DNA of 64,000 nt from Candidatus Omnitrophota bacterium (GCA_022709525.1 JAKLIQ010000002.1:984-64983), one strand, 5' to 3'. Positions 4,819-24,146 are shown, numbered from the stretch's first letter. The notes: a model not told the origin generated them from the letters alone. Translations and numbers: made by a program.

Positions 4819-6108
4819 CTAAACGTTCCACCATCCTTTCACAAAACTTCCCGGACCGTCGTAGAGCTCCCTGTAGTCCTCATTGAATCCGGTAATAGAA
4901 AAAACCTTTCTTCGCCCGGTTCGGCCCCAGGCAAAAACCTGATTATTCGCCTCGACGGAAAGCGTGTTGGTTTCGAAAAGATTGGCAAAAATACTCCCTT
5001 TCGCCGTCGTCGCTACGGCGATACGGCATTTCTTACAGCCAACAAAGACGCAATCCGAAAATTTGCCGTGCAAGTCAACGGTGTCGCAATCGATAAAAAT
5101 GCAATTGGAAGCGTCGCCGGTGACGATCTTGATCCCTTCGGTGCGGATCCAGACATTCCCCTCAAGGTCCGGCGCGCCCATTTGCGGGGCCTGGGCTTTT
5201 ATGAAATCAAAATAGACCGGGAGACTCGATGCCCAGTCCTGCCAAGTTCCCTTGACCTCCAGCCCTCCCAAGCCGATCTTGTGTTTCTTGAGATGTTTTT
5301 TGAAAGCTTTTTGAAAAACATTGAGTTTTGCATCGGGAAGCGTCAGGGTCTCGCTGACGAGCCCGTTAAAATCCCATCCGGCCTCATCCAATTCTTTGGC
5401 GAGTTTCTTTTCTTCCTTGCGGAATTCTTCGAACGCGGCCAGAAGTCCCTGCATCCCCTGGTGACTGAAATAAACCTGGAAGGTATTCCCAAGCGCCGTT
5501 CCTTCGCGAACAAGCGGGATCATCGCCGGATCTTTAGGTTTTTCAAAGAAGGCGACGATCCTCCCCGAAGGGTCCATTTGCGTGACGCCAAGTTGGCCCA
5601 CCGCGGTTGCGACCGGAACGTCTACCTGCAGCATCACCATACCGAATTGCTCGACCCTTTCCCGGAGCCTTTCGACATTGATATCGAAATAATTAAAAAA
5701 TTGATCGATCGGGATGATCATGACGGTGTTCTTCAAAAAAGGAAGGTTATGCGCCATGCAATGGAAAGTCTGGGCGATCGCGGGGCCCTTCGGGACCCGG
5801 ATCAGGGCCTTGCTGGGCTTTCCTGTCGCGTATTGCAGCGGAAAGATCCTCTTCGACATCCCGGCGTCGTGGATATAAACGATCGTATCGGGCAACTGGG
5901 CGCCGTGAGGGTAGAGGTCCAACACCTTCTTGTGGGCTTCCAAAAATCCGAGCAGGTTGCCGTGGATGCTTTCGTCCTCCTCGAGTTTCAGGAACTGGAA
6001 GGAAATATCATCACCGTGCTTGCTGCGCCACATTTCGTCAAAAATGCGTTGAAAGGAATGCTCCTCGAGCGGAGCGTACCCGTTATAGACCACCAGAACG
6101 TTCTGCAT
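4819..6108 (-). CDS. Hypothetical nucleotidyltransferase-like protein. Possibly fucokinase-family GDP-sugar pyrophosphorylase domain plus a C-terminal beta-helix.
   Basis: 429 aa ORF with GAAGGAG 8 nt upstream. The motif IHDAGMSKRIFPLQYATGKP resembles the hAGGxSxRLP...GK motif of L-fucokinase/GDP-fucose pyrophosphorylase N-domains. The C-terminus (IVTGDASNCIFIDCDTVDLHGKFSDCVFVG) looks like a left-handed beta-helix. The product call is tentative. Confidence 0.45.
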   Translation of the reverse strand: MQNVLVVYNGYAPLEEHSFQRIFDEMWRSKHGDDISFQFLKLEEDESIHGNLLGFLEAHKKVLDLYPHGAQLPDTIVYIHDAGMSKRIFPLQYATGKPSKALIRVPKGPAIAQTFHCMAHNLPFLKNTVMIIPIDQFFNYFDINVERLRERVEQFGMVMLQVDVPVATAVGQLGVTQMDPSGRIVAFFEKPKDPAMIPLVREGTALGNTFQVYFSHQGMQGLLAAFEEFRKEEKKLAKELDEAGWDFNGLVSETLTLPDAKLNVFQKAFKKHLKKHKIGLGGLEVKGTWQDWASSLPVYFDFIKAQAPQMGAPDLEGNVWIRTEGIKIVTGDASNCIFIDCDTVDLHGKFSDCVFVGCKKCRIAVATTAKGSIFANLFETNTLSVEANNQVFAWGRTGRRKVFSITGFNEDYRELYDGPGSFVKGWWNV

Positions 6109-6263
6109 AGATAGAAACTCCTTCTCAAGTTGGCGTGCTGAATAAAATGACGCTATCGATCTTTAAAATAAGCCGCACCCATGAAATTTTATTTTAGTGA
6201 AACTACACTTGCAATACCCTTTTGACAACAAAAAAATCCTCCCACGATCGAAAAGGTTCGCGA

Positions 6264-9200
6264 TTAAGCCGCTGTCTCGATCGACTCCTTCGCTTGGAAT
6301 GCGTTGTTAAATTCCTCGACGGCAACCGACCAGCCGCTCTTGCTATTCCGTTTGAGGAATGAGGACCCGGGCATATCTTCCAGATAGGTTTTCAAAAGTT
6401 CTGGATTTTTGGCGATCGCTTGCTGGGCGCTGCGGCTGAGTATCATATATTTGTAAAGCATATGCTGGACAATAAGCTTGACTACCTGTCTTGCCGCCGG
6501 ATCTGCCAATTTAAAATGATCAAGGTTGGAATTGCAGAGCAAAACCCCCAGCTCGCTAAAACCTATATCCTTGCTGGTGATACCAAACCATAATTCTCGA
6601 CTATCGGCGGTTATCTTGTTTGAAGCAAGCCGGTTCACGTCCTTGCCGGAATAGTTCAGCGGCGTGAAACGGTTTGTGACTTTGTGATAGCCGCGACCCG
6701 GCACATTCTCCTTCTCCTTGCCGTCATAAAAGACCACCAACTGGCGCAATTCCTCCAGCGACTCGATGATCCCCAGGATGTCGCTCGAAGTTCCGGGCGT
6801 GTGGTCCATAAGGATATTAATGGGCACGCCTTTCATTTTTGAGAGGAGTTCCGCGTTAGCCGCTACAAGCTGTTTTACGAGAGCGTTAAGTTTTGCGCGA
6901 TCGTACTGCGTCAGCTCAGCTTCTGCGGTAATTGCAACGGGGGCGGTGGTCAATTCGCCTGCGATGATCGTATTGAGACGGCTGAACTCTGCTGCGGTAT
7001 TGACTAGCCGCGCCTTATCTCCCAATCCGGTTTCAAACGCCGCCCAGGCATCCGGAATACCTAAAATGACCGCGTCGGCATTCGGCAGATTATTCAATAT
7101 TTCAACAAACTCTGCTATCGCGAGATTAAAAAGCGGGGCAAGGTTGCTGAAACCACGCTCCCCGCTCCGCTTTAATTGCGCCAGCACATTTTTTACTTCC
7201 GCGTCTGAAGGGTTCCTGCCAAGCGCCGCCAAAATTTGCGCAGAATCAGAACCCGTCAATAAAGTAAACGAATTGTCAGGACTCACTACTGTGCGAACCT
7301 CGGCCCGCTTAAAAGCCTGATTGAAAGCGCTCTCTCCCGCCAGGGTCTTTGTTGCGTCATTCCGGATCATTTCCAATCCTTCGACCATTTTGACAACAAA
7401 ATCATTCGGAAGCCGCTCTGGATCGGGATAACTCGATCGAGCCGTTTCCAGAAAATTCACTACACGCTCATCCAGAAAAGCGCGGTATTTCAGAAAGAAA
7501 GGAACAATGCCCGGCCTACGCCAATCCGACTCATCAAAAAACCTGTCCCATAGGATCTGCTTGGCTCGAGGGTCTTTTACAGATACCCCCCCATCAAGAT
7601 CTCCGCGCCTGAAAACGGGGATTCCATTCTCCCTTTCGCTGCTGCACCAAAAATTATGAACGAAAGAATCTTCAAAATAGAACCCGAGGATCTCGCCTTC
7701 TCTTATCGATCGGAACGCTTGGAGTAAAAACTCAAGGGAATAAAACGCATAGGATGTCTTTTCCGCCCCCGGTTCTTCCGGAGCTCTCAGAAAAAAATCC
7801 ATTATTGTGAACGCGCTTTTCGGAGGAACCCCGTACCTGTCCTCCAATCCTTCGAACGGTATAAGCTGAAATTCATCCAGAAAGTCGCTATCCCTGTAAT
7901 TGCTTACCGCGATAGGCGAAGTCCAATCCGAAATAAGCAAGGGATAAACATTTTCTGCATCCCGCTGGTCGTCCGCCGCTATATTGGACATTACCAAGTG
8001 GGGAATCTCTTTTTGATTTTTACCGATCATCTCATCCGCAGCGTCCAATTCGCTCTGGGTGGGATAGACTTTTATGGCAACGAGTTTTTCAGGAATTTGA
8101 TCCGAGCCCTGTCTCATTTGCATGGCCAACACGATCAGACTGCTGCCATCATATTTGGTCAGGCGTTGCAGCACTTCATAATACATCGAATCAAACTCGA
8201 CTTTTTTGCCCACTTCCGCCCACCCCGGAGACTTTCCATACGGTTTATATTCCCGGGCATTTCTTGGAATGTTCTGAATTACCTTTTCAAATCGTTCTCG
8301 CCACTTCATCCGCATCTCAGCGCGGACCCGAACGCCTTCCTTTGACTCCAGAACCCCCCTTTCGATAGCTGCTGGTTTTTCGAAAGATTCCAGATCCAAC
8401 CCCGCAACGTTCGGCAAAGTGATCTGGGTAGGGTCGGATATGCCGAGAATTCTGAGCAGATCCGCGACCGTTAAATCCCACAACTCCGGATTTTCTCCCG
8501 TCTTCTCCAAAATATCTCGCAGCAACTTTGCGGTAACTATGGTCTGCTCACGTTTTTCTGAAATCGAAACCGTACGAGCGTTATCCGGAATAATAAGGGC
8601 CTTTTTATAGCCGAAATCCAGCGTCGCAGAAACATACCCCCTATTCCATTCCCCCATTTGAGCCTTCCGGGCTAGATCACTATGCGAAGCGGTCAAAAAT
8701 CCCAAAGGTCTTACGGGGCTGACCGCGACCCGGAGGTCCCGCCCGTATTGAATATTCAAAAGAACATTTCTTTTTTTCACGCCGGGTTGAATATAATTTT
8801 TGAGGATCTCCGGCGCGTCTTCGGCGGACATGCCGCTAAAAAGTTTGTCCCCGAGCCACGACAGCGATTCTTCTTTAAAATACCTCTCCTCCGCCGCACG
8901 CGTTTCAGCGCGGGTTTTCGGGCGATCCGTCCGACGAATGGTGATGCGCCCCTTCGTGTCAATTTCTCCTTCGCCCAACAAATCTTCTGCTGCAAAATCT
9001 CCGCTCCTGATCGTTAATTTTCGGAGACCGTCCCTTTCGGGGCTCGAAACGATCAAGTTGATCCCGTAACCGCTCGTAACATCGCTAATGATCTCTCCCT
9101 GCTTATACTGCTTACTAAAACCGGAAATAATTGCGTCGCTAAAATCCGGCTCTTCGGAAGCGCCGTTCATAAATACATGAAAAACAGATCCCTCGCCGAT

Positions 9201-12200
9201 ACCCCGCTCTTGCAAACGACCTATGGCTGTCGCTATCTGTTGTCTTAGCTCCGCGTCAGAAATATATTCGCCTTTTTTACCCGGGAAGAAGTGAGCTGCT
9301 CCGATCCTTTCCCCGTCTTCTGTTTGGATAAGAACGAACACGCATTGCCCTCCCTGCAAAGCGCCGGATTGAAAAAGCTCTTTTTCAAAAACTCGCATCC
9401 TGTTTTCGCGTACCAAGGTCGGCAGATTTCTTTCAATCGCCTGACCGCTGCGAATATCATACATGGGATTATTTGCATAGCCGTCATCTCGGCGCTTTCC
9501 GGTAACGAGTTCGTATGCCAAGTCTTTGAGGGGCTCGATCCCTGTCGTTTTCTGATACCGAAACGCGGCAAAAATATCGAGCATCATCATTCCGAGAACC
9601 GCAAAAACAGCAACCCACCCCATTCTTGCGATCGCTTCTTTTCCTGATATCCGCAGTTCAGAGCGAAATTCCTGGCGCGAAACTCCGGATTCGGGCTTCG
9701 ACTCTCCGGACTTCAAAAATTGCGACCGCTTGCCTTTTAATTCTGGAAAAATTCTTTCAAGGTAGGGCCACGGATCACCAGGAGGAAAAACATAGAGATC
9801 ATAGTCGACGGAGGTGATCGGGGTGCCCGGAGGATACTCGCTTCGAAGGTCTGCTGGGCTAATACCGCCGCCCAAGCTGTCCGCGTCAGGATCGCCATCA
9901 AGGTCCAAATAAACATTTGCTACGTTCTTTCCTCGCGGCACTAACCAAAAAGTCGGAACATCCCGAGCGCGACCTTCGTTGACAAAACCAATCCCGTAGC
10001 GACCCAGCTTATAAGGCGTTTCGGACAAGAGCCCGCTTACGGTTTCAAGTGGTATCTCTTCCCATAGGCCGTCTTCGGTATTGATAATGATCTTATCGGT
10101 ATCATAAATTCCTGCACCAGGCCCGCCGGGACGGACAAACATGGAACTCGGCTGCCATGTTTTTAATGCTTCGCCAAGCCGAATACGGTCTGGGTCAAAC
10201 TTTGCTCCTGAAAAACCAATCCTTGGTGAAGCGGCCCGAACATTATATTTCACATTTATTTTTAAATAATCAAAACGTCCTTCCTTGTCTTTTTTGGATG
10301 GGCTAATGGTCGCTACAAAGCCATCCGTCTGGATCATGCCGTTGTCGTCAATAAAATCACCGGTCACAACAACGCTTCCCTGAAAACCGCGTCTGAATTT
10401 AAGGTTGTCGATCCTCCCTTTATGGTGATAATTGCCATCGCCATCCCAGTATCCCGGAAACGGAATAAAACTCATGCCCCATTCGACCAAGATCGTCTCG
10501 GTCCTTCCGTCTGGCGTCTTGACGGTCACGGGCATGAGCGTTGCGCGCCAGTAATCTGGCTTGATCGAAATAGATTGGAAATAGTCCATAAGCACTTGGA
10601 AATAAATTTGTACTTCCGAGGCCTCGCCGGCCTTTCCCAAATTCATCATAATGGGAGTACCGTCGGTATCGTCGGCGAGTTTAACAAGAGCGCCATCCTT
10701 ATGATACACTTGGCGTTCTTGAGCCATGCTTGGAGTGGGCAAAGCAACAGCGGCGCCCAGCATGACGCCCGCCAAAAGACTAATTAAATTTTTTCGAGAG
10801 AAAAATCCTCCGCGCGAAATCGGGCTTAGTCTTTCCCCTTGCCTAGCGACGGGCAGGCGCACTTCCGCACGGGATTTTTGATCGGCTTCGGCATTGAGGC
10901 GTATCGCCTCTTCGACGGCGCTTGGAGGTAATTGACCCGGATAGGCGTTGATCATGCCGGAGGAGGTCACTCCAAACACAACCACGCCATTTCCGTCTTC
11001 CCCATATCGTTCTGCATGATCAACAATATCGGGAACTCCTCCATAATAATCGGGAGCATCGGGATCCAGCGAACTTGTGTTATAGCGTGTTACGCTATTT
11101 GTATTTCGATCATAAACAAAAAACGCGTCGCCAAAAAATTCGGCGGTTTCAATCCGGGTTACATTTTCTTCGGCGACCCCATAATCAAACTCCTGCTGGA
11201 AATGGGTCGCATGAACCAATTCATGCAAAATGGTCCGGATAAATATTTCCCATGCTTCCGCCCGATCGCTCATGACCCAATCCATCGCGCCTTGATCAAC
11301 CGTTACGATTTGTCCGCCCTGGACGGCATCCCCGCCTGCTCCGCCCTCATCAGGTCTACCCTCCATCTTTGGACTTATAAAAAAATGATCCTTCCAGTTC
11401 TCGCCAAAAAGTAGGGTCTTTAATTCAGGATTCCTCCCATCGCTCGCCAAGGCCTGAAGCTCTTGCCATGCGGCTTCTATGATTCTCCATTCAGCTTCTG
11501 AGGGTTGACGATATCCCTGCGGCACTTTTACTGGCGATTTAGACCAGCCAACATTGCTTTGGGTTGTCTCACACCCTGCCCCTAAAAATCCTACGGCGGC
11601 TCCTGCCGAGGCTAAACCGACTATTTTCAAAAAGGCGCGACGGGATATTTTCTTGGAGCTAAGACCTGCGGCAATAACAGCGGCAAGACCGGCAGCCACC
11701 AAACCTCCCCGTGACGGCCCTACGCGCTTTTGATCCCGCGCAAGAAAACCCCCAAGTGCGGGAACTGCTTCGTAAAGATTTTCACCAGCCCTAATCTCCG
11801 CTCTGAATGGAAAATCGAACCGATCTAAGCCCTCACGATCTTTCCAACCAAATGCGGCAAAATCAACTTTGACACCACCCGCTTTGGCCTTGAGAAGAAA
11901 CTCATCGCGCGGAAGTTTTTGACCGGGAAAACCATTTGCAAAAGATTTCTGCATATTTTCAACATACAAGTTCTCGTGGATATATAAAACGCTTGCCGGT
12001 TTGTATTGATCTAAAAGATTGGAGAGTAACGCATAAACAGGACTTGAAACGTCTCCGGCATACAAATGATGTAATCCGGTTTCTTCCAATCCTATCATCA
12101 AATGGTTGCTCCCGGTCCTACGCTGACGATCTTCAACGAACTCCTCAAGCGAACCATAACCTAAATATTTAGCAACTCCCACGGTTCGTCGAAGTTGAAC

Positions 12201-14708
12201 TTTTAAAGTTTCTTGGACTGCCAGGTCTGTTTTTTTATCTTTGAAAATCTCTCCTGCGCGCACTTTTTCAGCGGTCAATTTAAGCACCGTTGAGGAAACA
12301 TAACGGACTTGCTGGTTTGCTTCTAGCGCAGGAAGCGCGCCCCAAATATGCTGCGCAGCGCCCTCGACAATAATGAGCGCGGGACCCGGATTAGCCCGAA
12401 GATGAGCGCTTACAGCACTTTCGATTTCAGCCCAACTTGTAATATCCCGTGAAATCGCGTTGGAGGGCTGGTTAGCCAAGGCCTCTTTGTAAGCTTCTTC
12501 GACTACTGGATCTTGCAGATCAAAAAGAGGCATTAAATCACTCAAAAACCCTTCTGCGCCTAATTGGCTTGTCAAATATTCCGCCCTTCTGTCCACGCTT
12601 GTTTTCTCCGAAGATTCATCACGAACCTTGGGCAACTCGGAAACCGGTTTTTCGATTGCTGGTGCAACAATGAGTGGCGCTACAACAGAAATCGCCCCTG
12701 TTGGCGCATAACCGAGGGGTATGCTTCTTGCTCCCGGCTCTAAGGGGCGCTGCGGAGGAATCATTGAAGGTTTGGCTTTGGAAACGTTATCTAAAAGCGC
12801 GGAGACGGTTTGGAGATTTAGTTCCTTTTTCGAAACCAACTCCCGGAGTCCCGTTCCGAATTCCTGGAGCTGCGCCTCGAAACGTTTCCAGATCCCGGCC
12901 AAGGATTCGTCGCGGAAGCGTTCGAGCTCTTTCTGGATCGCGGCGATGATCTCTTCTTTGCTTCTCTTCAACGGCGCTTGACCAAAACGTATTTGCGCGG
13001 GCAAAGCTAGGGCGTCGATATAACGGGTGTACTGCCCCACGTCGGCGATGGTTCCCTTTGCCGCAGCGTTGCGGATCAGTTGATCGCGCCAGGATTTTAG
13101 ATTTCTGTCGAGCCCGGCCAGAGGCAACTCCATCAAGAGTTTTTGCATCGCGGCGCGGGCGAACGCGTCATAAAGCGTCGCATTGGGCGACGGCTTATAC
13201 GAAACATCCCCTTTCATCACGCGCGCATAATTTTCGTAGCCCGTCAATGAATGGATCCGGGGCGTTATCACTAAATGCGAAACGCCGTTGGCCCGGAGGA
13301 TCTTTTTAAGCCCTTCCGTGTGGAAACCTCCGGCGACCATGACCGCGGTCTTCTGTCCCTCCTTGTTCATGAGAGAGGTGAGCCGGTCAAAAAATGCCCG
13401 GTCGCGGGCAAGCGCATGCTCATAAAACTCTAAAGCCGGTTTGACCTTCTCGCGAAAATCCCGATCGCCTAACAGCCCGGCGAAGCTCTCGGGATCCTCC
13501 TGATAGGCCTGGAGCTCCTGATGGGTCAGTTCCAACTTAACGAGATCTTCCAGGATGAAGAGGCGCTCATATTTTTTCGCCAGCTCCCGCTCTTCCGGCT
13601 TTTCTGCCAACGCGGCCATGCTCTCCGGAAGGTATTTCTGCAGTTCATCGAAAAGGCGGCTTCCCTTGATCTCGGAAAGCGTTTCCGTATGCCCGAGCAG
13701 TTTCCGCATCTGCGGGGTTAATTTCGGCCGGAACCCTTTCGATTCGCCGATCCGCACCATGTAAAGCAGGAATTGTCCGGCGCTTAATTTCCCCGTCGAG
13801 AACGCCTGATATTTTCCGTAGAAATTCATTTCCTCTTTGACGCCGAACTGGCGGACATACTTCATTTTGAATTCATTCGCCATCTCGCGGATCATGGGCT
13901 CGAGGGCTTTCTCTTTGCCGGAACGGTCATAGCCGACCGAACTCATAACCTTCGAAAGCTCGGCATAGCGGGACGATTTGGAAGGCCTCAACCCAAGCGC
14001 GTTCAAAGCGAGGAAAAGCTCCAGAACGGAGATGCGCTCGCTGCGGAAACCCTGCCACGCTTCCTGGAAATCGTTCAGCTTCTGCGAATAAACCGATCTG
14101 CGTTCACGATCGAGCTTCTCCTTAAACGATGCGAGACTCTTAAGCAAATCGTCCTTAACCGCCTGGACCTGCAAGTAAGCGCGGTAGTTCCGCTCATAGA
14201 GGTCCCAATTCTCGATACCGTAAAAATTATTTTCTTTTTCGCCGAGGATCGCGGCCATCTCGGGCCCTGTCAACTCAGCCTGTTCCAGATAACCCGTCAT
14301 GACCTTTTGCATGACCTTTGCGTCAGGGAACGCGCGGTAAAGCGTCGGGTCCAGCTTCTCCTTGCCGCCTTCCAAAGCAACGAGACGAACGCCCTGCTCC
14401 TTCTGGAGATATTCGATCAGCCGCTGAATGTTTTCCTGCGCGTCATTGACCGCGTGGGCGTCCTGAATGAGAATGACCGTCTTGTCGCTCGCCGGATCCC
14501 GGAACCTCGCCTGGATCTCGCCGAGAGTGTTCGGTATCGCGATTGCCGCGGTTTGCGACGCGGTCGCCGCAACGGATTGCGCAGCGCCCATATCCCCGCC
14601 GCTGGCAGGGACAGACCACGCGCAGTTCGTTGTCGCGAACACAAACGCGACCACGGCAGCGACTATTCGTCTCCCTTTGTTTTTTTGATACATAGTTTCC
14701 GTGTTCAT
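6264..14708 (-). CDS. Giant secreted or membrane-anchored multidomain protein of about 2815 aa. Paralog of the 8256-aa protein in its N-terminal domain. Contains an HExxH metalloprotease-like motif and internal signal-peptide-like segments.
   Basis: Uninterrupted 8.4 kb ORF. After a short leader, the N-terminus MNTETMYQKNKGRRIVAAVVAFVFATTNCAWSV is a signal peptide or TM anchor. The region around 13050-14600 encodes a domain with ...ILIQDAHAVNDAQENIQRLIEYL...VMVAGGFHTEGLKKILRANGVSHLVITPRI. This is clearly homologous to the N-terminus of the 31421..56191 protein (...VLHVQDAHINEEAQRNIANILRYF...IVTGGFHTPGIEKYLREKDISYIVVAPRI). ILHELVHATHF lies at about 11215-11240. Confidence 0.85.
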   Translation of the reverse strand: MNTETMYQKNKGRRIVAAVVAFVFATTNCAWSVPASGGDMGAAQSVAATASQTAAIAIPNTLGEIQARFRDPASDKTVILIQDAHAVNDAQENIQRLIEYLQKEQGVRLVALEGGKEKLDPTLYRAFPDAKVMQKVMTGYLEQAELTGPEMAAILGEKENNFYGIENWDLYERNYRAYLQVQAVKDDLLKSLASFKEKLDRERRSVYSQKLNDFQEAWQGFRSERISVLELFLALNALGLRPSKSSRYAELSKVMSSVGYDRSGKEKALEPMIREMANEFKMKYVRQFGVKEEMNFYGKYQAFSTGKLSAGQFLLYMVRIGESKGFRPKLTPQMRKLLGHTETLSEIKGSRLFDELQKYLPESMAALAEKPEERELAKKYERLFILEDLVKLELTHQELQAYQEDPESFAGLLGDRDFREKVKPALEFYEHALARDRAFFDRLTSLMNKEGQKTAVMVAGGFHTEGLKKILRANGVSHLVITPRIHSLTGYENYARVMKGDVSYKPSPNATLYDAFARAAMQKLLMELPLAGLDRNLKSWRDQLIRNAAAKGTIADVGQYTRYIDALALPAQIRFGQAPLKRSKEEIIAAIQKELERFRDESLAGIWKRFEAQLQEFGTGLRELVSKKELNLQTVSALLDNVSKAKPSMIPPQRPLEPGARSIPLGYAPTGAISVVAPLIVAPAIEKPVSELPKVRDESSEKTSVDRRAEYLTSQLGAEGFLSDLMPLFDLQDPVVEEAYKEALANQPSNAISRDITSWAEIESAVSAHLRANPGPALIIVEGAAQHIWGALPALEANQQVRYVSSTVLKLTAEKVRAGEIFKDKKTDLAVQETLKVQLRRTVGVAKYLGYGSLEEFVEDRQRRTGSNHLMIGLEETGLHHLYAGDVSSPVYALLSNLLDQYKPASVLYIHENLYVENMQKSFANGFPGQKLPRDEFLLKAKAGGVKVDFAAFGWKDREGLDRFDFPFRAEIRAGENLYEAVPALGGFLARDQKRVGPSRGGLVAAGLAAVIAAGLSSKKISRRAFLKIVGLASAGAAVGFLGAGCETTQSNVGWSKSPVKVPQGYRQPSEAEWRIIEAAWQELQALASDGRNPELKTLLFGENWKDHFFISPKMEGRPDEGGAGGDAVQGGQIVTVDQGAMDWVMSDRAEAWEIFIRTILHELVHATHFQQEFDYGVAEENVTRIETAEFFGDAFFVYDRNTNSVTRYNTSSLDPDAPDYYGGVPDIVDHAERYGEDGNGVVVFGVTSSGMINAYPGQLPPSAVEEAIRLNAEADQKSRAEVRLPVARQGERLSPISRGGFFSRKNLISLLAGVMLGAAVALPTPSMAQERQVYHKDGALVKLADDTDGTPIMMNLGKAGEASEVQIYFQVLMDYFQSISIKPDYWRATLMPVTVKTPDGRTETILVEWGMSFIPFPGYWDGDGNYHHKGRIDNLKFRRGFQGSVVVTGDFIDDNGMIQTDGFVATISPSKKDKEGRFDYLKINVKYNVRAASPRIGFSGAKFDPDRIRLGEALKTWQPSSMFVRPGGPGAGIYDTDKIIINTEDGLWEEIPLETVSGLLSETPYKLGRYGIGFVNEGRARDVPTFWLVPRGKNVANVYLDLDGDPDADSLGGGISPADLRSEYPPGTPITSVDYDLYVFPPGDPWPYLERIFPELKGKRSQFLKSGESKPESGVSRQEFRSELRISGKEAIARMGWVAVFAVLGMMMLDIFAAFRYQKTTGIEPLKDLAYELVTGKRRDDGYANNPMYDIRSGQAIERNLPTLVRENRMRVFEKELFQSGALQGGQCVFVLIQTEDGERIGAAHFFPGKKGEYISDAELRQQIATAIGRLQERGIGEGSVFHVFMNGASEEPDFSDAIISGFSKQYKQGEIISDVTSGYGINLIVSSPERDGLRKLTIRSGDFAAEDLLGEGEIDTKGRITIRRTDRPKTRAETRAAEERYFKEESLSWLGDKLFSGMSAEDAPEILKNYIQPGVKKRNVLLNIQYGRDLRVAVSPVRPLGFLTASHSDLARKAQMGEWNRGYVSATLDFGYKKALIIPDNARTVSISEKREQTIVTAKLLRDILEKTGENPELWDLTVADLLRILGISDPTQITLPNVAGLDLESFEKPAAIERGVLESKEGVRVRAEMRMKWRERFEKVIQNIPRNAREYKPYGKSPGWAEVGKKVEFDSMYYEVLQRLTKYDGSSLIVLAMQMRQGSDQIPEKLVAIKVYPTQSELDAADEMIGKNQKEIPHLVMSNIAADDQRDAENVYPLLISDWTSPIAVSNYRDSDFLDEFQLIPFEGLEDRYGVPPKSAFTIMDFFLRAPEEPGAEKTSYAFYSLEFLLQAFRSIREGEILGFYFEDSFVHNFWCSSERENGIPVFRRGDLDGGVSVKDPRAKQILWDRFFDESDWRRPGIVPFFLKYRAFLDERVVNFLETARSSYPDPERLPNDFVVKMVEGLEMIRNDATKTLAGESAFNQAFKRAEVRTVVSPDNSFTLLTGSDSAQILAALGRNPSDAEVKNVLAQLKRSGERGFSNLAPLFNLAIAEFVEILNNLPNADAVILGIPDAWAAFETGLGDKARLVNTAAEFSRLNTIIAGELTTAPVAITAEAELTQYDRAKLNALVKQLVAANAELLSKMKGVPINILMDHTPGTSSDILGIIESLEELRQLVVFYDGKEKENVPGRGYHKVTNRFTPLNYSGKDVNRLASNKITADSRELWFGITSKDIGFSELGVLLCNSNLDHFKLADPAARQVVKLIVQHMLYKYMILSRSAQQAIAKNPELLKTYLEDMPGSSFLKRNSKSGWSVAVEEFNNAFQAKESIETAA

Positions 14709-14890
14709 AATGTCTTCTTTTTTAAGTCGTAAAATCTTTACACAGCCTCCTTCTCTGCATTCCGCAACCCTTTGCAACAACACTCGTTGCCTCTAGAAAT
14801 ATTTGATTTTTCCTCCAATACAAAAGTAGCATGATAGAGAAGATATTACAAGATATTGAAAAGATTTATATATTATTCAGAGGTTATAAT

Positions 14891-20266: not shown

Positions 20267-21073
20267 TCAGGAGTAAATACGGATACGGCGCCTGAATTCA
20301 CTCCAGGGAAAGAATTTTCCGGGACACTCGGTGGCGGCCCCGGGAACATCGCGGTGACCGTTAATGTTCTGATCCGGAATGCGGTAGAATTTTTTCAGTG
20401 TGATCGTAAGAAAAACAAGGGAATCGAGCATCTTGTCAGGGAGCCCTGTTTCGCTATAGTTGCCCACGACCGCGATCCCGATCGACTTTTTGTTGTAATC
20501 GCTCGCCTTCGTGTGAGCGCCATCCATCTGTTTGATCCAGCGCGGGCCCACCTCGATCTGGCCCATGGTTTTCCCACGAGTGCCGTTGTCGATCAAGAAG
20601 TGATAACCCATCCCGTTCTCCCAGCCTCTCTTTTGGTGTAAACCGTCAATGCTGTAAGCGCTTCCCACATCGGTCGCGGTATGATGGATCGTGATATGCG
20701 TCCAGCGCGTCGTGATATAGAGCGGGATATTCGGCCGCGGGCCGCGCGTGTTGGGAACAAGGAGTTTCTGCCCCCGCTTGATCTGCCTCGGGTCCTTGAT
20801 GTTATTGACCCGCATCAGGGTTGCCATATCCACGCTATAGATGCTGGAAATGCGCCACAGGGTTTCGGAAGGGCCGACTTCGTGGTAGACAGTTCGCAAC
20901 GGGCCTGCGGGAGCCGGCAGGACGGTGCTGATCGCGGAAGAGGGGCCGGAAGGCTGATAAACCGTTTGTCTCGACGATGCGCATCCGGACAGAACGCCAA
21001 CGCTCGCAAAAATAACGAGAAGCGCCCAACCCTGCAGGTTTGAGGATCTCTGTTTGGATATTGGAAGTCGCAC
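20267..21073 (-). CDS. Lipoprotein with a LysM domain and N-acetylmuramoyl-L-alanine amidase (amidase_2/PGRP family)
   Basis: Signal peptide plus lipobox (LLVIFASVGVLSGCAS). LysM-like TLWRISSIYSVDMATLMRVNNIKDPRQIKRGQKLLVP. Amidase_2 motifs GYHFLIDNGTRG, IGIAVVGNY, INGHRDV. Confidence 0.85.
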   Translation of the reverse strand: MRLPISKQRSSNLQGWALLVIFASVGVLSGCASSRQTVYQPSGPSSAISTVLPAPAGPLRTVYHEVGPSETLWRISSIYSVDMATLMRVNNIKDPRQIKRGQKLLVPNTRGPRPNIPLYITTRWTHITIHHTATDVGSAYSIDGLHQKRGWENGMGYHFLIDNGTRGKTMGQIEVGPRWIKQMDGAHTKASDYNKKSIGIAVVGNYSETGLPDKMLDSLVFLTITLKKFYRIPDQNINGHRDVPGAATECPGKFFPWSEFRRRIRIYS

Positions 21074-21179: not shown

Positions 21180-24047
21180 TTAAGGCTTTAAATATGAAGC
21201 AATTTTCCTTTGGAAAGCATTCAATCCGGCCGGCAAATTGGCGCCGAGCTCCACCCCCAAAACAGGGAGTCCTTTGCTTGAGATCGCCTCATAATCCCCC
21301 ATGGCCTGGGCGCGCTTTAGCTGGCTAAACCCGTAGACCTCGCCGGGGATCTTCACATCCTTCGCATCTTGAACGAAAAACTCGATAAAAATACCCTGTT
21401 TGGGACCGCCCTTGTAAAGCTGGCCGATCGAATGAAGGTACCGCGGGCCGAAACCCGACAGGACCGGGACTTTCAAAGCTGACGCGATGGTTTTCTGTAA
21501 ACCCTGCAGAGCTTTTTTGCTGGCCGGAGAACGGTCAAGATAAGCCAAAAGCGACACGAAACCGTTTTTCGGAAGTTTGGCAAAAAAACCATCCAACAAT
21601 TTCTTTTCCGCCGGCGCTAGTTTTGAGCTGCGGGCCGCCAGGATCTTGCCGGGTTTCGGCAAGGCCTTTTTCTTTTTAATGTCGCCCAAAAGACGGCTTG
21701 TGATGTTCTTGGATTCCGTCACATTCGGCTCGTCGAAGGGGTTGACCTTAAGGACCACGCTCGCAAAACTTGTCGCGACTTCCCACCGGAGGAATTCTCC
21801 GCCCACGTTCATGCCGTCATCCCAGACAAAATCCAAAACTGGAAACCCTTTGGTCTTTAATGGCTTGATGCGCGCTGCCCAAAGCTTTTCATTTTCGCCT
21901 TTCAAACGGAGCGTGACGAAAACCCGGTCGCTGCCGTAGCGGTCGAGGTTCAGAGGCGGTTCTCCCGCCACGGGAGTAATGCCCTTCCCTTCCTTGCCCG
22001 TGCTTTCGGCGATCAATTGCTCCGCCCAGTCGGCGAAGGAAGCAAGCGACGGCGATGTCCAAAAAGTCAGTTTATCTTTACCTTTAAGCGCCAGGACGCC
22101 TAAGAGAATACCGAGCGCGATCCCTTCGTTTTTTGAAATATCCGTCACGGCGCGCATTTGATCCAAGAAACGCTTCGCGTCCGCAAGGATTTGCCTGGCA
22201 TCGATCCCAAGAAGCGCCGCCGGCACAAGCCCGAAGAATGAAAGCGCGGAATACCGGCCTCCGATATCCTGGGGATTTAAGAAAAGCCCGCCGAAAGTCT
22301 TTGAGCGACCGAGATCGGCGAGCGGCGAACCTTCATCGGTGACGATCACGAAACGTTCCGCGGCTTTATTCTCATCGCCTTTGTAGAATTTTTTCACCCG
22401 ATCGAAAAAATACTGGTACTGGGACCGCGTTTCGATCGTGGAACCGGATTTGCTCCCCACGATAAAAAGCGTGGAAGGATAACGCACCGCCTTTTCAACC
22501 TTAAGAATGCTGGCCGGGTCGGTGGTATCCAGAAGATGGAACCGAATCCCTTTAAGCGCTCCCTTTATTTTTTGCGAGGGCTTCTTCAGAATGAGCGAAA
22601 GCACTTCGGCAGCCAGACTGGAACCGCCCATGCCAAGCAAGACGATGTCGCGGATCTTCGCCTTGGAGGCCTTTTCCTGGAGCTGGTCGATCTCATAGAG
22701 TTTCCCCATGATCTTCTCGCAGTTATCCACCCATCCCAAGCGGTTAAGGATCACTTTTTGGTGCGCGGCATCATTCGACCAAAGCGTCGGATCTTTGGCC
22801 AGCCAGCGCGCGTGAACGTCTTTCTTGGAAAGCTGCGCGATCGTATCTTTTACCTTTTTTTCAAGATCGGAAGTAAGCGAAACGTTGACTTTCACGGGCG
22901 ATGCCATGGGAGATTCCCTTTTCTGTTCGAGGGTTTTCATGAGAGATTCGAAAGAATTCACGAAAGATTTCACGCCGTCTTTTTGCAGGCGGTCGCAAAC
23001 CGCGTGAATATCAATGCCAAGACCTTTGAGATCCGCGATCGCCGATTCGGCTTCTTGGAGATTTTCTTCGATCGTATCGGGCCGGATCTGGCCGTGGGCC
23101 AAAAGCGCTTCCCACGTCGCCTGCGGCAGCGTGTTGACGGTATCTTTGCCGACAAGCGTCTCCACATAAAGCAAGTCGGGGTACGCGGGGTTTTTTGTGC
23201 TGGTGCTGCCCCAAAGCGCCTTCTGAACATAGGCGCCTTTTTTCTTAAGCGCCTGAAAGCGGCCCGAGCGGAACAGTTCTTTAAAAGAGCGGTAGATCAT
23301 CTTGGAGTTCGCGATCGCGGCCTTGCCCTTGAGGTCCGTGAGAAGCATCCGTTTTGCGGCATCATCTTCGGTCGCCAGTTTCGTATCAAGCTGCTTATCG
23401 ATATCCGTGTCGATGCGGCTGACGAAAACGCTCGCGACGGAATGGACTTTGGAAAGGTCCCCGCCCTTTTTGGCAAAAGTCTCGAGCCCGTCAAGATAGG
23501 CGTTCGCCACGTCGCGGTAGTTTTTCTGAGAGAAAATAAGCGTCACATTGACATTGATGCCGTCCCCAATGAGACGCCGGACCGCGCGGACGCCCGGCTC
23601 GGTCGCGGGAACCTTGATCATCACATTCGGACGGTCCACAAGCCGGAAGAGCCGCTTGGCTTCTTCCACCGTCGCATCCTCATTAAAAGCCAGATTCGGA
23701 AGCACTTCCAAGCTTACGAAACCGTGTTCGCCGCGGGTCTTTTTGAATACCGGCCAAAAAAGATCACAGGTTTCACGGATATCGGCCACTGTCAAAACAT
23801 CGTAAACCTCAAGCGTGCTCGCCCCGCGTTTGAGAAGCTTTTGGATATCCCGCTCGTAACCTTCCCCCTGGCTGATGGCCTGCTGGAAAATGGAAGGATT
23901 GGAAGTGACGCCGAGCAACCCGCTTTCTTCGATATAAGCTTTAAGCATCCCGGACCTTAAGAGCTTCCGGCTGATCGTATCGAGCCAGGGCCCCTGCCCG
24001 GCCTTGTAAAGTTCAATGCTCGGCAAACGCGTCGCTGCGGTTTCCAT
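21180..24047 (-). CDS. Bifunctional transaldolase / glucose-6-phosphate isomerase
   Basis: N-terminal transaldolase motifs (GVTSNPSIF, IKVPATEPG). C-terminal PGI motifs (LGMGGSSLAAEVL, SKSGSTIETRSQY). About 955 aa. I prefer the start at METAATRL (24047) over the ORF-track start at 24065. Confidence 0.85.
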   Translation of the reverse strand: METAATRLPSIELYKAGQGPWLDTISRKLLRSGMLKAYIEESGLLGVTSNPSIFQQAISQGEGYERDIQKLLKRGASTLEVYDVLTVADIRETCDLFWPVFKKTRGEHGFVSLEVLPNLAFNEDATVEEAKRLFRLVDRPNVMIKVPATEPGVRAVRRLIGDGINVNVTLIFSQKNYRDVANAYLDGLETFAKKGGDLSKVHSVASVFVSRIDTDIDKQLDTKLATEDDAAKRMLLTDLKGKAAIANSKMIYRSFKELFRSGRFQALKKKGAYVQKALWGSTSTKNPAYPDLLYVETLVGKDTVNTLPQATWEALLAHGQIRPDTIEENLQEAESAIADLKGLGIDIHAVCDRLQKDGVKSFVNSFESLMKTLEQKRESPMASPVKVNVSLTSDLEKKVKDTIAQLSKKDVHARWLAKDPTLWSNDAAHQKVILNRLGWVDNCEKIMGKLYEIDQLQEKASKAKIRDIVLLGMGGSSLAAEVLSLILKKPSQKIKGALKGIRFHLLDTTDPASILKVEKAVRYPSTLFIVGSKSGSTIETRSQYQYFFDRVKKFYKGDENKAAERFVIVTDEGSPLADLGRSKTFGGLFLNPQDIGGRYSALSFFGLVPAALLGIDARQILADAKRFLDQMRAVTDISKNEGIALGILLGVLALKGKDKLTFWTSPSLASFADWAEQLIAESTGKEGKGITPVAGEPPLNLDRYGSDRVFVTLRLKGENEKLWAARIKPLKTKGFPVLDFVWDDGMNVGGEFLRWEVATSFASVVLKVNPFDEPNVTESKNITSRLLGDIKKKKALPKPGKILAARSSKLAPAEKKLLDGFFAKLPKNGFVSLLAYLDRSPASKKALQGLQKTIASALKVPVLSGFGPRYLHSIGQLYKGGPKQGIFIEFFVQDAKDVKIPGEVYGFSQLKRAQAMGDYEAISSKGLPVLGVELGANLPAGLNAFQRKIASYLKP

Positions 24048-24146
24048 GGTTCCCTTTCTTATCATGAATTATGTAAGAGAATTTAAGGTTTTCAGGAGAG
24101 AAAAACTTGAGAAGTATATCATGAGGGGATGGAGCGCACAACGACA

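Follow-up and report, generated by a model that had tools for sequence, protein, structure and literature searches.

A twin-arginine-like leader with a lipobox-type cysteine inside a giant modular protein of Omnitrophota

We analysed a 64,000-nt stretch of a Candidatus Omnitrophota genome (GCA_022709525.1, JAKLIQ010000002.1:984-64983), referred to below as the window, whose minus strand carries a giant modular open reading frame (ORF). Counted from a GTG codon, this ORF spans 2,839 codons (6264..14783); translation from the first ATG (14708) gives 2,814 amino acids (aa) plus a stop (6264..14708). The ORF of 2,815 aa listed in an earlier reading of the same DNA (hereafter the sequence-only reading) therefore corresponds to the 2,815 codons from the first ATG. 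That reading had pointed to a twin-arginine translocation (Tat)-like motif, SRRAFLK, lying about 1,000 residues inside the ORF with no stop codon before it, and we could confirm both the motif and the open frame. Residues 1001-1046 read GGLVAAGLAAVIAAGL-SSKKISRRAFLK-IVGLASAGAAVGFLGAG-C1046 and are followed by ETTQSNVGW (window 11571-11708, minus strand), the motif matches the consensus S/T-R-R-x-F-L-K at 7/7 positions (residues 1022-1028), and the ORF reads through in three independent assemblies (the window, the homologue P0001 and L001, a contig from the Joint Genome Institute (JGI)). Rather than being N-terminal, the Tat-like leader begins near residue 1001 of an uninterrupted chain of 2,814 residues. 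From its surroundings, it is the putative leader of a single cassette that extends from RAEIR969 to RAEVR1284 and comprises a short linker, a hydrophobic leader in two parts with a lipobox-like Cys at its end, and a zincin-type domain; the segment starts 28 residues past the RAEIR969 junction.

Based on composition, the expected number of [ST]RR.FLK matches is 3.3e-4 for the 2,814-aa protein and 0.05 for 392 kaa (thousand amino acids) of family proteins, where two independent ones are observed, in this lineage and in the homologue P0054. SRRAFLK is also the sole instance of this pattern in the six-frame translation of the 64-kb window. As a 98-aa piece, the leader scored 18.1 bits with the NCBIfam model TIGR01409 (TAT_signal_seq; cutoff 16.7), and it reached 15.4-17.6 bits with Pfam TAT_signal PF10518 (17.6 bits as the 98-aa piece), below the gathering threshold (GA) of 22.7. 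Scanning the whole protein, we obtained a weak TIGR02811 hit alone, with TIGR01409 not reported, and no Pfam domain above threshold. The N-terminal flank of the leader carries a charge of +5 compared to +1 for the C-terminal flank, as counted from the sequence, and the segment is followed by C-E-T-T-Q, with no positive charge. The lipobox, part of what had been called a textbook signal, turned out not to be canonical: F-L-G-A-G-C has Gly at -3 where Leu, Val or Ile would be expected, and it does not fit the pattern [LVI][ASTVI][GAS]C. GAGC fits only the permissive PROSITE-style lipoprotein pattern. Elsewhere in the window, an ORF with LysM and N-acetylmuramoyl-L-alanine amidase domains (20267..21073, minus strand) carries at its N-terminus a lipoprotein signal of the canonical type (...ALLVIFASVGVLSGC/ASS, L-S-G-C), indicating that the organism makes conventional lipoproteins. 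No tat gene was noticed among the scanned ORFs of the 64-kb window, and a literature search for Tat in Omnitrophota yielded nothing relevant, the Omnitrophota papers that we examined making no mention of it.

The cassettes meet at a conserved pentapeptide, R[SAT]E[LVIMFTA]R, which is present in six copies in the 2,814-aa ORF (residues 969, 1280, 1682, 1933, 2129 and 2468; 0.07 expected). Globally, we counted 442 copies in 122 family proteins, compared to 2-29 for control patterns that were matched in composition or had Asp, Lys or Gln substituted in. At least one copy was found in 76 of the 122 proteins and none in the remaining 46; the 17 other ORFs of the window (8,258 aa) contained none. 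No copy of the pentapeptide lies within the first 500 residues of a family protein; the first one is most often at residues 650-700, and copies are spaced by a median of 310 residues. In the three relatives that we checked, all Pfam domains were located between the motifs. Its setting is Pro/Ala/Ser-rich and then changes to acidic linkers, with no extended consensus around the motif: the flanks showed compositional bias alone. Since its codons vary freely, the constraint acts on the peptide level, and the motif is neither a repeat in the DNA nor a case of recoding through a special Arg codon. A literature search for the pentapeptide retrieved unrelated alginate lyase papers only.

A family search with the 2,814-aa protein produced 290 hits, of which 120, with lengths of 1,553-4,904 residues, were listed. 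All source-named proteins among these 120 are from Omnitrophota/Omnitrophica, and 119 of them are non-identical homologues (25-49% identity) covering residues ~14-650 of the query. Apart from the near-identical P0001, six of the listed matches additionally align with the last ~300 residues of the query. The protein is thus a member of an Omnitrophota family of 1.5-8 kaa, the common part of which is an N-terminal helix (modelled at residues 6-29 in the 2,814-aa ORF) followed by a TIKI/erythromycin-esterase-like hydrolase domain, while the remainder consists of variable cassettes. The N-terminal domain has the parallel beta-sheet core of the TIKI/TraB/ChaN/erythromycin-esterase superfamily with long helical insertions, and its Pfam scores were below threshold. 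Its invariant residues are D83-x-H85, E113, E166, R435 and GGFH463. Of these, D83-x-H85, E113 (+28 from H85) and GGFH463 would fit the 2His/2Glu catalytic motif of the superfamily, with Asp replacing the first Glu. The superfamily includes site-specific endopeptidases, and the +28 spacing is the same as in Bcr135 and RRSP (PMC6254334). We regard the TIKI-like domain as a candidate hydrolase or protease.

The domain behind the Tat-like leader has a probable zincin metallopeptidase fold with an HELVH motif and is a putative protease. We searched residues 1047-1300 exhaustively with phmmer against 1.84 billion representative proteins and obtained only four hits (P0121, P0122, P0123 and P0124), in each of which the domain is embedded in a large protein; the zincin cassette was found in three sequence contexts. 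P0121 is an N-terminally incomplete fragment on the 3.9-kb contig L001 (JGI 3300038675, Ga0416708_017472). Compared with window positions 8749-11801, L001 shows 94.5% DNA identity from exactly RAEIR to 5 residues beyond RSELR1682, that is, across two cassettes. An unrelated cassette then replaces residues ~1692-1927, after which the DNA identity is 100% from 5 residues before RAETR1933; upstream of RAEIR, the L001 sequence is unrelated to the window. Breakpoints within 5 residues of the junction motifs indicate that relatives have exchanged whole cassettes. Over its final ~170 nt, L001 diverges to AT-rich sequence, and this end may be an assembly chimera. P0122, a 6,270-aa family member, carries the leader-plus-zincin cassette at 43% identity (residues 3575-3891, between RSEMR3575 and RSEIR3891). 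P0123 and P0124 are not giant; by eye, they have N-terminal Sec-type signal-like sequences with the zincin domain internal, and hence look Sec-exported, which would place the domain outside the cytoplasm in these relatives.

Among the four phmmer hits, we found no stand-alone or split version of the zincin cassette. A metagenome scan with the zincin alignment gave no confirmed locus, and a genome scan recovered just the locus of P0122 plus a single relative that is not giant. Word-index searches with residues 985-1335 and 1330-1681 returned zero hits, yet they also missed P0001, which the full-length query had recovered, and are therefore uninformative rather than a sign of absence. The proposal that a former gene had been fused into the ORF is thus supported in one respect, in that the cassette is self-contained, resembles a pre-protein and has been exchanged as a unit, but has no split or stand-alone counterpart among the four hits. 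As for conservation of the leader between close relatives, P0001 (98% identical, 2,809 aa) keeps the twin arginine. So does P0121, which reads SRRGFLK, with the x position changed, and LGVGC, with the Cys kept. Since this module is ~90% identical, retention of the leader says little; the two leaders differ at 4 of 47 residues, in line with the ~90% identity across the cassette.

A second Sec-like segment had been noted after the HExxH motif, and it is indeed present downstream of HELVH 1162-1166 (SRKNLISLLAGVMLGAAVALPTPSMA/QE, residues 1304-1329). Leaders of Sec, Tat or lipobox type also follow junction motifs directly in other cassettes of the family. In P0054, the junction is followed by a Tat-like SRRGFLK (RAEMR-qpll-SRRGFLKGLGAAAVVVPGTSVA; TIGR01409, 23.2 bits; Pfam TAT_signal, 22.1 bits); the module behind it showed no significant homology to the module after the second leader of our protein. 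P0122 provides a further case, RSEMR-...-FSRRNLLLGALGLSLGIGVA/QKA, before a NAGPA domain (phosphodiester glycosidase; 25.2 bits, GA 25), and P0025 has RAEVR-...-KILMAGILSIAMMSSAIAM/SP before PG_binding_1. In P0050, ...MRRHWVQLALGLVAAPAATIGEALA/QP precedes a weak methyltransferase-like match, which does not fit. P0116 contains an independent lipobox-type leader with two hydrophobic stretches (...AVSIALVMLAPNVQNPALVARLLVAGLQVGAVVTVAGVFVGC/EGGGSDSG, reading ...VAGVFVGC/EGGGSDSG around the Cys). Signal-peptidase-type c-regions, either AxA-like or lipobox, thus recur after hydrophobic segments of cassettes, and two of the three nameable domains after such leaders are of envelope type (PG_binding_1 and NAGPA). 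The positions of all features discussed here are collected in Table 1.

Table 1. Features of the giant ORF and its paralogue in the 64,000-nt window (window coordinates; residues refer to the 2,814-aa ORF unless stated otherwise)
Feature	Position	Strand	Remarks
Giant modular ORF	6264..14708	-	2,814 aa; open from GTG 14783
N-terminal hydrophobic helix RRIVAAVVAFVFATTNCAW, residues 13-31	14616..14672	-	Basic KNKGRR before helix; family-conserved FVFT.TSV.W
Family-defining N-terminal domain, residues ~36-690	12639..14603	-	TIKI/TraB/ChaN/erythromycin-esterase-like fold
Junction RAEIR, residues 969-973	11790..11804	-	Upstream edge of zincin cassette; L001 homology starts exactly there
cgg gga ggt ttg gtg (R G G L V)	11697..11711	-	GGAGG with in-frame TTG and GTG
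Hydrophobic stretch 1 GGLVAAGLAAVIAAGL, residues 1001-1016	11661..11708	-	Ala/Gly-rich, weakly hydrophobic; putative first hairpin arm
Basic loop SSKKISRRAFLK, residues 1017-1028	11625..11660	-	Five positive charges; includes SRRAFLK
SRRAFLK, residues 1022-1028	11625-11645	-	Tat consensus
Hydrophobic region IVGLASAGAAVGFLGAG and lipobox-like Cys1046	11571..11624	-	Cys codon 11571-11573
Zincin-like metallopeptidase module, residues 1047-1279	10872..11570	-	HELVH 11211-11225; EENVTRIE 11148-11171
Junction RAEVR, residues 1280-1284	10857..10871	-	Pentapeptide match
Second leader SRKNLISLLAGVMLGAAVALPTPSMA, residues 1304-1329	10722..10799	-	Sec-type, SMA/QE c-region
Junction RSELR, residues 1682-1686	9651..9665	-	L001 homology ends 5 aa past RSELR
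Third module-initial hydrophobic segment MGWVAVFAVLGMMMLDIFAAF, residues 1696-1716	9561..9623	-	Sequence
Junction RAETR, residues 1933-1937	8898..8912	-	L001 homology resumes 5 aa earlier
Junction RAEMR, residues 2129-2133	8310..8324	-	Pentapeptide match
Junction RAEVR, residues 2468-2472	7293..7307	-	Pentapeptide match
Paralogous giant ORF, 8,256 aa	31421..56191	-	Same N-terminal helix and domain (26% identity), four junction pentapeptides

The genes flanking the giant ORF are ordinary chromosomal ones, encoding PFOR, HflX, MiaA, ArgRS, NadE and a thiolase. Between the last two junctions (residues 2134-2467; window 7308-8309, minus strand), the sequence LVAIKVYP resembles the VAIK of protein-kinase-like folds; this region gave no Pfam hit. 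The 8,256-aa paralogue has two dense clusters of hydrophobic segments, at residues ~1884-2323 and ~5974-7249. A single 961-aa ORF at window 21180-24065 (minus strand) combines transaldolase (27-378) with phosphoglucose isomerase (468-692).

How could a leader come to lie 1,000 residues inside a protein? The modular layout offers an explanation, as cassettes the size of genes make up the chain and the zincin cassette among them carries its own leader. We favour the interpretation that SRRAFLK...GAGC is a built-in, working export and lipid-anchoring leader of this cassette within the intact chain, to which we assign a probability of roughly 40%. The N-terminal helix would start export, and hydrophobic stretch 1 would bring the chain back in as a stop-transfer segment. 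The five positive charges of SSKKISRRAFLK would keep the loop cytoplasmic, and the Ala/Gly-rich second stretch would restart export as a start-transfer segment with N-in/C-out orientation, which would bring the protease module to the outer side of the cytoplasmic membrane. Cys1046 would then be situated at the outer end of the helix, where it could serve as a site of Lgt and signal peptidase II action, and the module would probably become lipid-anchored and the chain severed. A hairpin with a lipobox could in this way be the least that is needed to cut an exported chain and anchor one of its modules by a lipid. The two-part hydrophobic leaders before the Cys in our protein, in P0122 and in P0116 fit the design of such a device, as far as sequence can tell. 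The suggestion of helical hairpins that thread modules across the membrane thus remains plausible as one of the two leading explanations. Because 1,770 residues and two further hydrophobic segments follow, the intact chain would need Sec/YidC, and the Tat consensus would reflect ancestry and positive-inside charge. Tat moving a passenger ahead of 1,770 residues is implausible given the rules described for tethered Tat signals (PMC5449189).

Several observations weigh against a working leader in the intact chain. One is the Gly at -3 of the lipobox. Another comes from the 43%-identical copy in P0122 (...SAKLKRN-ASLVLLAASLNF-SNPVFWART-APVAAFVMTAGTAC/SQG), which does not have the twin arginine, with KLKRN instead, and in which the segment that MAFFT aligned to hydrophobic stretch 1 is polar. 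Homologues with a simple transmembrane (TM) hairpin and no conserved twin arginine had been named in advance as evidence against an export signal. What we found in P0122 is mixed: the arginine pair is lost, whereas a basic n-region, two hydrophobic stretches and the Cys, within two alignment columns (...VMTAGTAC), are retained. By this comparison, constraint looks stronger on the membrane-active part and the Cys than on the arginine pair. Furthermore, a hydrophobic segment was detected within 60 aa after only 27 of 441 junction motifs, with a modest enrichment over random (14% vs 10.5%); we accordingly rejected the idea that most modules begin with a hydrophobic leader. In an intact chain, the leader at 1304-1329 would also be forced into an N-out orientation against its own charge bias, making its SMA/QE useless. 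Finally, relatives carry cytoplasm-type enzymes, such as S-adenosylmethionine (SAM) methyltransferases, APH and GT2, behind the N-terminal signal-like helix. If this helix acts as a normal signal anchor, these enzymes would be placed outside the cytoplasm.

The alternative that deals with some of these difficulties is a polyprotein, which we consider possible, if rather doubtful. The chain would be cut at R[SAT]E[hydrophobic]R, possibly by its own TIKI-type domain, and the cassettes would then be sorted by their own leaders. Cleavage might tentatively be expected to yield a pre-lipoprotein of ~311 residues (974-1284) whose free N-terminus would make SRRAFLK a genuine Tat (or Sec) lipoprotein signal. 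It could likewise turn residues 1285-1686 into a Sec pre-protein and the next product into a type-II anchored protein, with leaderless modules staying where they were made. In favour of cutting, the junction pentapeptide is extremely specific, is under selection at the peptide level and lies in linkers between Pfam domains, and the only universal domain of the family has the TIKI/Ere fold with D-x-H...E(+28)...GxxH, in a superfamily that includes endopeptidases. The full 7/7 Tat consensus, which arose or was kept twice, also points in this direction, as charge bias alone needs less, and a charge bias towards N-in, as in signal peptides, is shared by the segments at 13-31, 1029-1046, 1304-1329 and 1696-1716. 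P0025 (residues 1120-1896) adds a conflict of compartments: its PG_binding_1 (1166-1197) and GT2 (1547-1651, followed by a TM hairpin at 1778-1825, as in GtrB/ArnC-type enzymes) are split by RSEVR1520 with no hydrophobic segment between them, so that one of these periplasm- and cytoplasm-type domains would be misplaced in an uncut chain. What speaks against cutting is that 46 of the 122 family members are without the junction motif and that an N-terminal helix exporting the TIKI-like domain would put it across the membrane from cytoplasmic junctions. The hydrophobic helix before the twin arginine would moreover be atypical for a Tat signal and unnecessary in a cut product, and the pair is not conserved in P0122. 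To our knowledge, bacterial polyproteins on such a scale have not been established. In a purely speculative variant, the protein would be an effector array delivered into and processed within prey, whose export machinery would read the leaders and bring the envelope-degrading modules to the prey envelope; this would explain the cytoplasm-type enzymes behind an N-terminal signal. Under the positive-inside rule, the intact-chain and the cleaved-chain models each need an extra assumption for some segments, and neither accounts for SAM-, ATP- or UDP-sugar-dependent enzymes placed behind an N-terminal signal-like helix in relatives that have no further hydrophobic segment.

The segment could also be a plain TM-hairpin anchor, or the relic of a captured Tat-lipoprotein gene, with the arginines serving only as positive-inside charge and a Cys that is neither lipidated nor cleaved. 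We judge this to be unlikely, even though the missing twin arginine in P0122, the non-canonical -3 position and a leader that, when the window is compared with P0121, is conserved no better than its cassette as a whole are what it would predict, and published surveys take such Omnitrophota segments simply as TM helices. A mere anchor does not readily explain why the Cys persists at 43% identity, why leaders precede envelope-type domains or why signal-peptidase-type c-regions recur. In addition, the independent P0116 cassette has a hairpin and a Cys and continues with a Gly/Ser-rich stretch, which is typical of mature lipoproteins. Internal translation initiation at the TTG/GTG codons (window ~11697-11711), giving an independent pre-lipoprotein, had been put forward on account of a GGAGG just upstream; we find it highly improbable. 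The GGAGG and in-frame codons are present and identical in L001, an identity that carries no information where the DNA is 94.5% identical and encodes the same amino acids, but the spacing of 1 nt and 4 nt is poor, as the usual optimum between Shine-Dalgarno sequence and start codon is longer. Such pairs are also common, given that the giant coding sequence contains 13 GGAGG, three of them with an in-frame start codon within 12 nt. P0122 has different residues at this site, no promoter-like site above chance was found on the coding strand, and the product would still carry a hydrophobic helix before the twin-arginine motif. Least credible of all is a chance resemblance in an Ala/Gly/Leu-rich stretch. 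The modest hidden Markov model scores, below the Pfam threshold and with TIGR02811 alone in the whole-protein scan, would allow for it, but a 7-mer expected 3e-4 times in the protein, the TIGR01409 score above cutoff and the hydrophobic region with a Cys at signal-peptide distance after the motif argue otherwise, as does the second independent instance in P0054, which has the same position relative to the junction motif. An export leader at work in the intact chain remains our preferred interpretation. Its cassette setting, the leaders on other cassettes and its partial conservation can be seen in the sequences, and its orientation in the membrane, lipidation and cleavage are inferred.

Giant proteins of Omnitrophota are a recognised puzzle with regard to their cleavage points, the unreliability of topology predictions and the presence of cytoplasm-type enzymes together with signal peptides. 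Beyond what the sequence-only reading had offered, our analysis supplies a context that could explain the leader, namely a modular family, a junction pentapeptide and leaders on other cassettes. It also provides testable handles in the form of the pentapeptide, the complete leaders of Sec, Tat or lipoprotein type with which some modules begin, and the conserved N-terminal TIKI-type domain. If the leaders are used, one gene would give rise to products on both sides of the membrane, either via an unusual insertion involving a hairpin and signal peptidase II or via a bacterial polyprotein. Such leaders would escape topology and signal-peptide pipelines in which calls at a distance from the N-terminus are dismissed as artefacts.

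Among known systems, the leader would work most like internal tethered Tat signals and Tat lipoprotein signals, yet it fails the defining features of both. In dual Sec/Tat-targeted membrane proteins, including the actinobacterial Rieske protein Sco2149, Sco3746, polyferredoxins and the long YkuE (Keller 2012, PMC3471235; Tooke 2017, PMC5449189), there is likewise an internal twin arginine in a cytoplasmic loop, followed directly by a TM segment of low hydrophobicity that carries a metal-dependent domain outward, and the signal is tethered by a hydrophobic helix ahead of it. In our protein, a loop of 6 residues separates helix 1 from the arginines, compared to a reported minimum of ~8 (PMC5449189). 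The Tat segment of the dual-targeted proteins comes last and their passenger is C-terminal, whereas here 1,770 residues and two hydrophobic segments follow; our segment also has no positive charge after it, an arginine pair that is unconserved in a distant homologue, and a lipobox. Tat-dependent lipoproteins have been described in haloarchaea and Streptomyces. They share with our leader the SRRxFLK n-region, the Ala/Gly-rich h-region and the Cys at the end of the h-region, but have their leaders at the N-terminus, in contrast to residue ~1001 of 2,814 and the Gly at -3 seen here.

Internal signal-peptide-like segments with N-in/C-out orientation are known from the Bradyrhizobium cytochrome b-c1 precursor FbcH and from flavivirus polyproteins, where a signal peptidase cut generates two membrane-associated proteins. 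Their sites are of the signal peptidase I type, unlike the signal peptidase II-type lipobox after an internal hairpin in our protein, a configuration for which we know of no described case. MARTX toxins resemble it in their length of several thousand residues and their exchangeable modules, which a built-in protease releases, while release is only proposed here; the MARTX effector RRSP moreover has the TIKI fold, as does our N-terminal domain. MARTX processing relies on a cysteine protease domain and Leu-X sites. The junctions of our protein are RxExR rather than Leu-X, it has no RTX-type repeats, and MARTX modules are without Sec, Tat or lipobox leaders.

The closest relationship in kind is with the long 'multi-enzyme' proteins reported for Omnitrophota (West-Roberts 2023, bioRxiv 10.1101/2023.11.21.568195; 2026, bioRxiv 10.64898/2026.06.07.730766; Seymour 2023, PMC10066038). 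By term search, these papers mention neither a junction motif, linker, polyprotein or cassette exchange nor internal or twin-arginine signals or a TIKI-like domain. One of them states that cleavage points are unknown, and in another, signal-peptide calls on later chunks of four proteins of at least 100 kAA were discarded as chunking artefacts. For a 147-kAA protein, the enzyme content contradicts the predicted topology (bioRxiv 10.64898/2026.06.07.730766). Like our protein, the long Omnitrophota proteins are encoded by very long ORFs, begin with an N-terminal signal-like helix and have scattered TM helices; they are tiled with methyltransferase, kinase, GNAT, PGM and glycosyltransferase domains. 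With the same phylum and the same kind of protein on both sides, the 2,814-aa protein clearly belongs to these already described long modular proteins of Omnitrophota.

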